DNA of 64,000 bases from Escherichia coli (GTDB lineage Bacteria > Pseudomonadota > Gammaproteobacteria > Enterobacterales > Enterobacteriaceae), in assembly GCF_030384885.1 (NCBI RefSeq), contig NZ_CP128613.1. One strand, 5' to 3'. Of the stretch, positions 3,001 through 6,000 are shown piece after piece (the stretch's first letter is position 1; every line of letters starts with the position of its first letter). The position numbers are program-made.

Positions 3001-6000
3001 ATCGATCTTGATGACGTGATGTTGCACAGCGAAGTTAACCTGCCGATTGATTTCCTCGTTAACCAGACGCTGACGCTGGGGACTGAGTGGAATCAGCAGC
3101 GGATGAAGGACTTAAGTTCCAACACCCAGGCGCTGACCGGAACGAATACCGGCGGTGCTATTGATGGTGTGAGTGCCACCGACCGTAGCCCATATTCAAA
3201 GGCAGAAATTTTCTCGCTATTTGCCGAAAACAACATGGAGCTGACTGACAGCACCATCGTAACGCCGGGGCTGCGTTTCGATCATCACAGCATTGTCGGC
3301 AATAACTGGAGTCCGGCGCTGAATATATCGCAAGGTTTAGGCGATGACTTCACGCTGAAAATGGGCATCGCCCGTGCTTATAAAGCGCCGAGCCTGTACC
3401 AGACTAACCCGAACTACATTCTCTACAGTAAAGGTCAGGGCTGCTATGCCAGCGCGGGCGGCTGCTATCTGCAAGGTAATGATGACCTGAAAGCGGAAAC
3501 CAGCATCAACAAAGAGATTGGTCTGGAGTTCAAACGCGACGGCTGGCTGGCGGGCGTCACCTGGTTCCGTAACGATTATCGCAATAAGATTGAAGCGGGC
3601 TATGTGGCTGTAGGGCAAAACGCAGTCGGCACCGATCTCTATCAGTGGGATAACGTGCCGAAAGCGGTGGTTGAAGGTCTGGAAGGATCGTTAAACGTAC
3701 CGGTTAGCGAAACGGTGATGTGGACCAATAACATCACTTATATGCTGAAGAGTGAAAACAAAACCACGGGCGACCGTTTGTCGATCATCCCGGAGTATAC
3801 GTTGAACTCAACGCTGAGCTGGCAGGCGCGGGAAGATTTGTCGATGCAAACGACCTTCACCTGGTACGGCAAGCAGCAGCCGAAGAAGTACAACTATAAA
3901 GGCCAGCCAGCGGTTGGACCGGAAACCAAAGAAATTAGCCCTTACAGCATTGTTGGCCTGAGCGCGACCTGGGATGTGACGAAGAATGTCAGTCTGACCG
4001 GCGGCGTGGACAACCTGTTCGACAAGCGTTTGTGGCGTGCGGGTAATGCCCAGACCACGGGCGATTTGGCAGGAGCCAACTATATCGCGGGTGCCGGCGC
4101 GTATACCTATAACGAGCCGGGACGTACGTGGTATATGAGCGTAAACACTCACTTCTGATGCTAACGTCAGATTGTTGACAAAGTGCGCGTCGTTCATGCC
4201 GGATGCGGCGTGAACGCCTTATCCGGCCTACAAAAATCTTGCCAATTCAATATATTGCAGGATAGTGTAGGCCTGATAAGCGTAGCGCATCAGGCAGTTT
4301 TGCGTTTGTCATCAGTCTCTAATATGGTCGATATGAAAACTACGCATACCTCCCTCCCCTTTGCCGGACATACGCTGCATTTTGTTGAGTTCGATCCAGC
4401 AAGTTTTCACGAACAGGATTTACTCTGGCTGCCGCACTACGCTCAACTGCAACACACTGGACAGAAACGCAAAACAGAGCATTTAGCCGGACGGATCGCT
4501 GCTGTTTATGCCTTGCGGGAATGTGGCCTTAAATGTGTGCCCGCAATCGGCGATCTACGCCAACCTATGTGGCCTGCGGGGGTATTTGGCAGTATCAGCC
4601 ACTGCGGGACTACGGCATTGGCAGTGGTATCCCGTCAACCCATTGGCATTGATATCGAAGAGATTTTCTCTGTACAAACCGCAAGAGAATTGACAGACAA
4701 CATTATTACACCAGCAGAACACGAGCGACTCGCAGAATGCGGTTTAACCTTTTCTCTGGCGCTGACACTGGCATTTTCCGCCAAAGAGAGCGCATTTAAG
4801 GCAAGCAAGATACAGGCCGCTCAAGGTTTTCTGGATTATCAGATAATTAGCTGGAATAAACAGCAGATCATCATTCGACTAGAGGATGAGCAGTTTGCTG
4901 TGCACTGGCAGATAAAAGAAAAAATAGTCATAACGCTGTGCCAACACGATTAATTGACAACATCTGGTACGATTCGCCCGCAGCCATCACTGACCACGGG
5001 CGAAAGTGTAAAGCAGGTGCCTTACCATCCTGACCTGACAACCGGATATGCGGGGATTACTCCCCGCACAACGGCTACTTCTTCGGTTCGTAAGCGAGAA
5101 CAGCCCTGAACTCAATATTACGTTCCTTTACGGTGAACTCACACAGCGAGTCGCCGACCAGAAGCGTAAATCCCAGCACTGTCAAACACAGCACTATGAC
5201 CGCCACAAGGGCATATTTCGTCAGCATGTTTATATTGCCTCCATGCGAAGAAGGGACTACCATCCAAATTGTCTGGTTTGGAGTGGCGGCCCCAGGGTTG
5301 ATAGAAATATCTCCTGGGGCTTCATCTTTCCAGACCTCAGAGTTAACCTGAAACCGGAAAGCTTCAGGCACCCGCCGTTATCTTACCCTTCCTTAGCAAA
5401 ATGGCTGTTTATTTATACAGTAAATCCTGTTCCGGACTTTTCATTAGTATTATCGCCCATGCCAGTTAAACGAAATCGCCCGCAGCCATTGCTGACCGCG
5501 GGCGAAAATGTAAAGCAGGTGCCTTACCATCCTGACCTGACAACCGGATATGCGGGGATTACTCCCCGCACAACGGCTACTTCTTCGGTTCGTAAGCGAG
5601 AACAGCCCTGAACTCAATATTACGTTCCTTTACGGTGAACTCACACAGCGAGTCGCCGACCAGAAGCGTAAATCCCAGCACTGTCAAACACAGCACTATG
5701 ACCGCCACAAGGGCATATTTCGTCAGCATGTTTATATTGCCTCCATGCGAAGAAGGGACTACCATCCGAGTTGTTGAGGTTCGGAGTGGCAGCCCCAGGG
5801 TTGATAGAAATATCTCCTGGGGCTTCATCTTTCCAGACCTCAGAGTAAACCTGAAACCGGAAAGCTTCAGGCACCCGCCGTTATCTTACCCTTCCTTAGC
5901 AAAATAGCTGTTTATTTATACAGTAAATCCTGTTTCGGACTTCTGTTGGCAAAACTGATCATTGCCCTTAAAACGACATCGCCCGCAGCCATCACTGACC

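Follow-up and report, generated by a model that had tools for sequence, protein, structure and literature searches.

The hok/mok/sok (parB) system of plasmid R1 resembles the hokE/sokE units described here in its Hok/Gef toxin, the antisense RNA Sok encoded within the leader of the hok mRNA, the hairpin that Sok targets and the fold-back of the transcript. In R1 mRNA numbering, the mok start codon AUG is found at 116-118 and the hok AUG at 174-176; the mok reading frame, with 70 codons, differs from that of hok and is needed as far as the hok Shine-Dalgarno (SD) sequence (PMC9841398). Among the chromosomal systems of Escherichia coli K-12, hokC/mokC/sokC (gef) has a mokC annotated as an in-frame N-terminal extension of hokC, both ending at a common stop codon; the continuation of an upstream ORF into hok is thus already on record as a normal state. 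The K-12 hokE/sokE locus (b4415/b4835) occupies the same ybdK-entD position as the locus analysed here and consists of the same unit, with a 50-aa Hok and no annotated mok. Chromosomal hok loci reportedly do not mediate post-segregational killing, as cited in a preprint whose overexpression assay included HokE as a control of already characterised toxicity (bioRxiv 10.1101/2025.08.07.668861). According to the same source, about 10% of Hok genes belong to hok "islets" with 2-6 homologues each, and the identification of Mok coding sequences is not trivial.

Results

The window analysed in this work, a 64,000-nt stretch of E. coli DNA, contains three tandem hokE/sokE type I toxin-antitoxin units between entD and ybdK (Table 1). 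These units are direct repeats with a spacing of about 503 bp. E. coli 2013C-4282 shares 99.9% identity with the window and has three annotated hokE genes in the entD-ybdK interval; hokE copy 1 is the annotated hokE WP_000956467.1 of that genome, and coding sequences homologous to the window hokE carry the hokE annotation in RefSeq genomes. The Rfam covariance model RF01794 matched units 1 to 3 over its full length on the hok-sense strand, scoring 81.8, 83.6 and 86.8 bits, respectively (gathering score 59). The Hok ORF matched Pfam family PF01848 (HOK_GEF) with 31 bits (cut-off 22). The +1 of hokE (5372 in unit 1) was assigned by homology, using an alignment to R1, hokB and hokC together with the start of the Rfam model. 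When the hok and Sok promoters were sought with a generic sigma-70 scan, its threshold was not reached (8 of 12 matches), and the placement of Sok was taken from the K-12 sokE annotation instead. The Sok promoters of units 1 and 2 are homologous to that of sokE, with a -35 box TTGCCT, a 17-nt spacer and a -10 box TACCAT.

Table 1 Features of the three tandem hokE/sokE units in the window
Feature	Coordinates	Strand	Basis
Unit 1 (type A), predicted full-length hokE mRNA, +1 (5372) to terminator hairpin	4968..5372	-	homology, fold
98-codon GTG ORF, reads through into hok	5075..5371	-	ORF listing
hokE copy 1 CDS, 50 aa	5075..5227	-	annotation in 2013C-4282, HOK_GEF
SD GGAGG of hokE copy 1	5238-5242	-	SD-antiSD -9.3 kcal/mol
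Sok-target (sokT) hairpin, unit 1	5253..5293	-	fold, pair counts
8-nt apical loop CCAGACAA of the Sok-target hairpin, unit 1	5269..5276	-	alignments, folds, Rfam structure line
Sok-1 antisense RNA, 59 nt	5271..5329	+	homology with annotated K-12 sokE
Sok-1 promoter, -35 TTGCCT	5235-5240	+
Sok-1 promoter, -10 TACCAT	5258-5263	+
22-codon ORF from AUG(+48), unit 1	5257..5325	-	SD-antiSD -6.3 kcal/mol
3' fold-back element AGGCACC, unit 1	5016..5022	-	full-length fold
Unit 2 (type B), leader and hokE copy 2	5577..5875	-	CDS 5577-5729
77-aa GTG ORF, unit 2	5641..5874	-
83-aa in-frame ATG ORF, unit 2	5577..5828	-
Sok-2	5773-5832	+
Unit 3 (type C, K-12-like), leader and hokE copy 3	6080..6378	-	CDS 6080-6232
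77-aa GTG ORF, unit 3	6144..6377	-
83-aa in-frame ATG ORF, unit 3	6080..6331	-
Sok-3	6276-6335	+

A preliminary description of this DNA had proposed that copy 1 lacks one base and that this deletion fuses the mok frame to hok. Alignment of the three units confirmed the length difference: the segment CCATCCAAATTGTCTGGTTTGGAG of unit 1 (+ strand, 5260-5283) has 24 nt, whereas those of unit 2 (5762-5786) and unit 3 (6265-6289) have 25 nt each. The K-12-type loop CCCGAACAA and the unit 1 loop CCAGACAA differ by one substitution and one missing base, and the apical loops comprise 8 nt in unit 1, 9 nt in unit 3 and 11 unpaired nt in unit 2. The ORF listing also agreed with the description regarding reading frames. 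The mok-like 77-aa GTG ORFs of copies 2 and 3 are in the +1 frame relative to hok, and copy 1 contains a single 98-aa ORF with a GTG start, which shares the hok stop codon and ends in the 50-aa Hok. The HOK_GEF domain was found above the Pfam gathering score at residues 53-94 of this ORF, and a domain search with its N-terminal 48 residues returned no family match. In units 2 and 3, the 83-aa ATG ORF already shares the hok frame, so that the indel exchanges the upstream ORF that reaches hok and does not create a unique fusion. At the site of the indel, PGAP flags a spurious antisense ORF as frameshifted.

Type frequencies were determined with exact 32-35-mers, short words located within the second hairpin only, and full leader lengths were verified in about 45 sampled units. 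By this count, about a fifth of the complete E. coli genomes (1119 of 5426), contributed by many laboratories, carry type A (the short loop, exact 32-mer); types B, C and D were detected in 144, 2221 and 2286 genomes, respectively. An identical copy of the unit 1 60-mer is present in 63 complete genomes. Type A carriers include O157:H7, O55:H7 and ST131, and the type A loop is also found in E. whittamii, which rules out a private recent mutation. An independent 14-nt loop (CCCAAC) was found in Escherichia sp. MOD1-EC7003. The preliminary description had considered a consensus or homopolymer error. A sequencing or consensus error in this assembly would have the general prior on single-base indels in its favour, with no further support found. 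The site is not a homopolymer run, the same 60-mer and 32-mer recur in the 63 and 1119 genomes mentioned above, and the allele exists in a second species; the chance of such an error is practically nil. The short allele is a natural variant, neither an error nor a private mutation. The hok gene was intact in 17/17 sampled type A units, although in one of them (L024) an IS150 insertion has removed the promoter and 5' leader. In one genome, type A is the sole hokE copy; it carries an extra C and has a leader of 146 nt.

In the RF01794 model structure, the missing base falls in a loop. Folding indicated that the Sok-target hairpin is retained across all leader types. Among 9 distinct sequences, 97% of the cells were paired, as opposed to 39-61% when the partners were slid, and two pairs at the top of the stem switch from A-U to G-C in a compensatory manner, a covariation that supports the hairpin. 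The K-12 sokE annotation places Sok +1 44 nt upstream of the hok ATG, so that the indel corresponds to Sok nucleotides 2-6. Sok is predicted to fold into a single-stranded 5' tail and a terminator hairpin, after which comes a U-rich tail. Both the MFE and the centroid folds of the 405-nt unit 1 transcript paired nucleotides 1-7 (GGUGCCU) with the 3' AGGCACC, and the full-length fold had a z-score of -7.2. Sequence variation was concentrated in a short part of the leader: 6 of the 9 variable columns of the 147-nt leader in the three window units are within 15 nt, and across 17 distinct leaders 8/19 segment columns were variable versus 21/128 elsewhere (Fisher p = 0.014). At least four hokE leader/Sok types could be distinguished, which differ mainly in the Sok 5' tail and the target loop.

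The functional reading of the deletion, an extended Hok or a loss of coupling, rests on the 77-aa GTG ORF being a true mok. Several properties of the start codon oppose this. When aligned to R1 numbering, the GTG would occupy positions +2 to +4 of the hok mRNA; it has no SD (dG 0), is 144 nt upstream of hok and about 40 nt upstream of the Sok-complementary region, and the full-length fold predicts that it is paired to the 3' fold-back element. In R1, hokB and hokC, the Sok-target hairpin contains the mok SD and ATG within its 5' arm and loop. Alignment of hokE types A-D revealed no ATG, GTG or TTG at this mok position. The MG1655 annotation contains mokB and mokC and no mokE, and no named mokE was found in the literature searched. 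What remains of the fused-mok proposal is its frame statement at the sequence level; the evidence opposes the idea that a normal mok-hok arrangement was broken in copy 1.

The arrangement of units 2 and 3 is itself not a conserved norm, since the type D leader is present in 2286 of the 5426 genomes and its GTG ORF ended before hok in the five D units read. A second loop indel (GGAGATATT versus GGACGATATT) was found in all four combinations with the 14/15-nt loop, and leaders measured from GGTGCC were 145, 146 or 147 nt long. With the two loop indels combined, all three frames relative to hok are represented, at high population frequency, both for the GTG ORF and for the ORF starting at AUG(+48). 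The hokE leaders do not share a conserved upstream frame with respect to hok. The proposal that one upstream ORF always reaches hok was rejected as a conserved property. It is trivial, as only one frame has a stop (the TAG in GGATGGTAG), it involves two starts in different frames, and copy 1 of L003, which has a 7-nt deletion, breaks the pattern. Two candidate alternative starts 3' of the loop were considered: UUG(-40) is absent in type B, and AUG(-36), which is invariant, lacks an SD and falls on the Sok -10 box. RNA structure and the overlapping promoter keep the leader nearly invariant, and substitution patterns are therefore uninformative on coding. Based on these features, the 98-codon ORF is most likely an untranslated by-product.

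Discussion

The data presented indicated that unit 1 is probably an intact hokE/sokE unit carrying a common natural allele (type A), with a Sok-target loop one base shorter and a 98-codon ORF that is unlikely to be translated. The same DNA would encode both the target loop and nucleotides 2-6 of the predicted single-stranded 5' tail of SokE, so that Sok and its target would change together and stay perfectly complementary. Because the change sits in a loop, the RNA architecture would be preserved, including the 5' hairpin, the Sok-target hairpin, the small hairpin sequestering the hok SD and the 5'-3' fold-back. The frame effect upstream of the loop would be incidental. We regard the difference as an ordinary, RNA-neutral polymorphism of an already known system.

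Other readings give the frame change a function. If translation started at the GTG (5371), unit 1 would yield a 98-aa Mok-Hok protein, an N-terminally extended toxin. The ORF is open and accompanies the 145-nt type A leader in every case, O157:H7 and ST131 included, and an in-frame Mok-Hok is annotated for hokC/mokC. However, initiation at a GUG at the inferred +2 to +4, without an SD and paired with the 3' fold-back element, appears very improbable. In E. coli, leaderless initiation depends on an AUG at the 5' terminus, a role in which GUG performs very poorly. In contrast, mokC combines GAGG, 8 nt and an ATG beneath the 5' end of SokC. PGAP annotates the 50-aa HokE alone, and the 48 residues that would extend it match no family. 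A second candidate for the functional mok equivalent of hokE is the ORF from AUG(+48) (GGAAAGAUGAAGCCCC), which we consider unlikely. Among the upstream starts, this AUG alone has an SD (-6.3 kcal/mol); all hokE leaders examined contain it, and it is predicted to be unpaired in the full-length fold. It is also located under the 3' end of Sok, within the Sok-complementary stretch, and Sok could therefore block it. In unit 1, the missing base shifts this ORF onto a UAG that precedes the hok AUG by 32 nt and the 5' arm (UCUUC, -24 to -20) of the SD-sequestering hairpin by about 6-8 nt; in R1, premature mok stops 5' of the hok start abolish toxicity (PMC9841398). The type A indel could thus affect coupling via a truncated AUG(+48) ORF. 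Unit 1 would then be differently coupled or uncoupled, either as a silenced or attenuated copy or as one in which the terminating ribosome still opens the SD-sequestering hairpin. A dead copy is at odds with the intact hok of all sampled type A units and with the occurrence of the allele in a second species. More generally, the SD of AUG(+48) is buried in the stem of the 5' hairpin in the predicted fold, and hokB, hokC and R1 have no ATG at the corresponding position. The frame of the ORF also differs among the three common leader classes, each of them carried by 21-42% of genomes, and this speaks against selection for any one arrangement.

This variation could be read in another way, namely that the hokE family lost a fixed mok and that the two loop indels form a standing three-state polymorphism of the AUG(+48) ORF, in which the frame is the regulatory state. 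The ORF is in frame, as mokC is with hokC, and would give an 83-aa extended Hok in types B and C and in type A with the extra C; it overlaps hok in the +1 frame, as R1 mok does, in type D; and in type A as represented by unit 1 it stops a short way ahead of the hok SD. If this were true, tandem arrays would mix coupling modes and Sok seeds. We find this improbable on the whole.

The preferred reading, a common allele with its RNA architecture kept, is compatible with a further idea, which complements it and does not exclude it. The hypervariable loop and the Sok 5' tail might act as a specificity determinant telling tandem paralogues apart, each Sok preferring its own hok mRNA, and the length change might be one route of seed divergence. 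In the R1 Sok/hok pair, recognition occurs between loop and tail. Sib/Ibs and Orz/Zor are documented cases in which a few nucleotides discriminate between paralogues, and the likeness of these systems to the SokE paralogues may offer a lead. The Sok seeds found were GUCUGG, GUUGAGG, GUUCGGG and GUUCAGG. In agreement with this idea, variation is concentrated in the loop and the first Sok nucleotides, the Sok 5' tail is predicted to be single-stranded with its target bases in the apical loop, and computed seed duplexes ranged from -12.7 to -19.2 kcal/mol for cognate pairs and from -4.1 to -12.0 kcal/mol for non-cognate pairs. Nevertheless, full non-cognate duplexes are still very stable (-28 to -48 kcal/mol, tail alone) since the remaining 50 or so Sok nucleotides are nearly identical, and the C and D seeds are one base apart. 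The enrichment of variation is modest and may reflect a relaxed constraint on the loop. We therefore put seed specificity forward as a tentative possibility.

The main value of these results is that they guard annotators against calling a frameshifted mok or a Mok-Hok fusion in E. coli. The hokE leader types and their unconserved frames also bear on the acknowledged difficulty of finding Mok. If leader translation matters in hokE, the natural alleles would be a ready set of variants for translational coupling.

Compared with K-12, where IS186 lies directly downstream of a single hokE copy, the window carries three tandem copies, all of them intact. Unit 3 shares the K-12 loop type and its Sok-3 sequence is identical to annotated sokE, whereas unit 1 has a 14-nt segment (type A) in place of the 15-nt type C segment of K-12. 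The leader architecture of hokC is homologous to that of hokE. The mokC start is an ATG in the Sok-target hairpin, 57 nt before hokC, preceded by GAGG and covered by the 5' end of SokC as described above; the 98-aa ORF of unit 1 has the common stop codon of mokC and hokC, and neither an SD nor cover by the antisense 5' end. In both R1 and hokE, the Sok -35 box overlaps the hok SD, and the R1 mok start has no hokE counterpart at the homologous place. Ibs/Sib, Zor/Orz and Ldr/Rdl likewise combine tandem duplication of a type I system with divergence concentrated in the antisense recognition region, as seen here for hokE/sokE.

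The array is the hokE/sokE locus

Three direct repeats with a spacing of ~503 bp were found on the minus strand between entD and ybdK (units 1 to 3, from the entD side). Rfam RF01794 matched all three leaders with 82-87 bits (gathering score 59), and the 1.8 kb region 4900-6700 was 99.9% identical to E. coli 2013C-4282, where RefSeq annotates entD, three hokE copies and ybdK. The array is the K-12 hokE/sokE locus. Toxin domain, covariance-model match, antisense gene and fold-back all place its unit in the hok/sok family; a canonical mok is missing from it, as from the whole hokE family.

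Features of the hokE/sokE array
Feature	Position	Strand	Remark
entD	4183..4953	+
ybdK	6683..7801	+
hok ORF, unit 1	5075..5227	-	50 aa, Pfam HOK_GEF match
hok ORF, unit 2	5577..5729	-	50 aa, Pfam HOK_GEF match
hok ORF, unit 3	6080..6232	-	50 aa, Pfam HOK_GEF match
Sok-1	5271..5329	+	transferred from K-12 sokE annotation
Sok-2	5773..5832	+	transferred from K-12 sokE annotation
Sok-3	6276..6335	+	transferred from K-12 sokE annotation; identical to K-12 sokE
Variable segment, unit 1	5260-5283		24 nt
Variable segment, unit 2	5762-5786		25 nt
Variable segment, unit 3	6265-6289		25 nt
In-frame ATG ORF, unit 2	5577..5828		83 codons
In-frame ATG ORF, unit 3	6080..6331		83 codons
AUG(+48) ORF, unit 1	5257..5325		22 aa
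hok mRNA terminator, unit 2	5476..5505	-	terminator-like scan
hok mRNA terminator, unit 3	5979..6008	-	terminator-like scan
Hok codon 46, units 1-3	5090..5092, 5592..5594, 6095..6097	-	Tyr46, UAC
PGAP antisense ORFs	5133..5351, 5635..5907	+	hypothetical protein

Three annotated hokE copies were present in the six best of the 30 genomes matching window 4900..6700 best, and two in the others; three-copy arrays seem uncommon. The order of the leader types defined below varies between lineages (A-B-C, B-A, B-D, A-D, D-C, A-C): entD-A-B-C-ybdK in the window, entD-B-A-ybdK in O157:H7 and entD-B-D-ybdK in E. coli W, with A and D in ST131. Such differences point to exchange between the repeats, by unequal crossing-over or by gene conversion.

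The locus has taken up insertion sequences in more than one genome: IS186 in K-12 MG1655 and IS150 in E. coli 98889, where it lies within a type A leader and the hok promoter and 5' hairpin are lost. The terminator-like scan gave no match at the unit 1 hok mRNA terminator (4968..5003, minus strand), whose stem carries a C-to-T change and which runs, without a T-run, into the unique sequence on the entD side (AATCGTACC); termination may be weaker in this entD-proximal unit, or it may have a convergent terminator in common with entD. Hok codon 46 lies within CUUACGAA in all three copies, and neither codon nor context varies among them.

The single-base difference lies in the loop facing Sok

As the preliminary description stated, the unit 1 segment is one base shorter than those of units 2 and 3. 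A single 98-codon ORF runs in unit 1 from a GTG at 5371 to the hok stop codon; from the corresponding GTG, units 2 and 3 each have an ORF of 77 codons, shifted to the +1 frame relative to hok. That description missed that units 2 and 3 already have ATG ORFs in frame with hok, so that loss of the base exchanges one upstream ORF running into hok for another. Sequencing error and a private mutation were ruled out by an exact 60-mer around the site, that of the unit 1 sub-variant with GGGGCCGCC, in 63 complete genomes, and by the spread of the short loop (type A below) over 1119 genomes and into E. whittamii.

The three leaders share a predicted target hairpin (GGGGCU GCCA. UCCAAA - loop - UUUGGAUGGUAGUCCC), after which a small hairpin sequesters the hok Shine-Dalgarno sequence (SD). 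Over nine distinct sequences, 97% of cells were paired, against only 39-61% with slid partners, and two stem-top pairs went from A-U to G-C through changes on both sides. The length difference sits in the apical loop (CCAGACAA versus CCCGAACAA). K-12 sokE is annotated at 607733..607792, which sets the Sok +1 44 nt before the hok ATG; the indel thus affects Sok nt 2-6, within a 5' tail predicted to be single-stranded.

The loop segment is a variable spot in an otherwise nearly invariant leader: 6/9 variable leader columns of the window units fell within 15 nt, and among 17 distinct leaders 8/19 segment columns varied, versus 21/128 elsewhere (p = 0.014). Computed duplexes of the first 10 nt of Sok with the loop gave -12.7 to -19.2 kcal/mol for cognate and -4.1 to -12.0 kcal/mol for non-cognate pairs, which would fit the loop and Sok tail acting as recognition determinant.

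Leader types and reading frames

Leaders were sorted into four types by loop segment; units 1, 2 and 3 are types A, B and C.

hokE leader types (lengths counted from GGTGCC; counts among 5426 complete E. coli genomes)
Type	Loop segment	Segment length	Extra C	Leader	Genomes
A	AAACCAGACAATTT	14 nt	no	145 nt	1119
B	GAACCTCAACAACTC	15 nt	no	146 nt	144
C (K-12 type)	AAACCCGAACAATTT	15 nt	no	146 nt	2221
D	CTACCTACCC-AAACCTGAACAATTT	15 nt	yes	147 nt	2286
A + extra C (E. coli 2016C-3878, E. whittamii)			yes	146 nt

The type A count, obtained with a short-loop exact 32-mer, includes O157:H7, O55:H7 and ST131. The loop also occurs in E. whittamii, and a unit that has it together with the extra C can be the sole hokE copy of a genome; Escherichia sp. 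MOD1-EC7003 has another loop of 14 nt (CCCAAC), which derives from the K-12 type. The unit 1 lineage differs from other type A units at 5292 (+) (GGGGCCGCC versus GGGGCTGCC), which breaks one U-A pair of the target hairpin (col 12/43; predicted -22.5 versus ~-26 kcal/mol). In E. coli EC42405 copy 1 (type A) the 5' hairpin lacks 7 nt, giving a 138-nt leader, and RMDEC465 copy 2 (type C) lacks one nt immediately ahead of AUG(+48), an upstream start.

The upstream-hairpin loop has a single-base indel of its own (GGAGATATT versus GGACGATATT), and all four combinations of the two indels were found. The GTG ORF consequently lies in the +1 frame in B/C and in the hok frame in A, and in D it meets the TAG of GGATGGTAG. 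From AUG(+48), the ORF shares the hok frame in B/C (83 aa), is shifted to +1 in D (62 aa), and in A ends at that same TAG. Each length class occurs in roughly 21-44% of genomes, and across the three nothing indicates that a particular frame relation is selected.

PGAP also annotates, opposite hok and leader on the strand that encodes Sok, a ~89-aa hypothetical protein in the window and loci L001-L013 of our sample (e.g. WP_009008364.1, WP_071550428.1). It had no protein family match and is marked as a pseudogene in most units ('frameshifted' or 'internal stop'), so that loop indels get recorded as its frameshifts; it looks like a spurious annotation.

Upstream starts in the hokE leader

The 77-aa GTG ORF had been taken for mok; this is doubtful, and it probably is not. 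Aligned with R1 hok, hokB and hokC, the hokE 5' end GGUGCCUGAAGC matches R1 +1 GGCGCUUGAGGC, which puts the GUG at +2..+4. The R1 reference sequence, 100% identical to many plasmids over 332 nt, gives the published numbering (mok AUG 116-118, hok AUG 174-176; PMC9841398). No SD was found upstream of the GUG, which in the full-length predicted fold (z = -7.2) pairs with AGGCACC near the 3' end, the classical fold-back. Leaderless initiation in E. coli is known to require a 5'-terminal AUG. In R1, hokB and hokC, the 5' arm and loop of the target hairpin hold GAGG, 7-8 nt and ATG, covered by the Sok 5' end, whereas hokE reads GGGGCUGCCACUCCAAACC there, without a start codon. The MG1655 annotation has mokB and mokC and no mokE, a name that we did not find in the literature searched; a recent survey calls the identification of Mok coding sequences non-trivial (bioRxiv 10.1101/2025.08.07.668861). 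A GUG-initiated 98-aa Mok-Hok fusion, for all that its frame is open in unit 1, is thus highly improbable. The type D second unit of E. coli 377323_2f reads GGCGGATGCC instead of GGCGGGTGCC, so that its 5'-terminal GUG is an AUG; this change would also introduce a mismatch with the 3' fold-back element.

Of the upstream starts, just AUG(+48), numbered from the homology-inferred +1, is preceded by an SD (-6.3 kcal/mol; hok AUG -9.3); it is present in every hokE leader examined and lies under the Sok 3' end. That it opens a functional leader ORF, cut short in unit 1, is nonetheless unlikely. If it did, the unit 1 ORF would fall 32 nt short of the hok AUG instead of fusing with hok, the opposite of what had been proposed; since a ribosome terminating at the TAG would reach about the 5' arm of the SD-sequestering hairpin, coupling might survive. 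A three-state natural polymorphism of leader-ORF coupling in hokE is less probable still.

Comparison with known systems

Collectively, the preliminary description read the bases correctly, and the unit 1 difference is a polymorphism that is common and neutral for the structure, in a system already known; mok identity of the GTG ORF is unlikely. For R1, all that counts is that ribosomes travel as far as the hok SD; the Mok peptide itself is not expected to play a part (PMC9841398). An in-frame mok is annotated in K-12 hokC, where mokC and hokC end at one common stop codon and mokC adds an extension of 19 codons. K-12 carries one hokE/sokE copy with IS186 just downstream, whereas the window has three; tandem copies are a known hok feature ("islets"), and the window array is likewise tandem.
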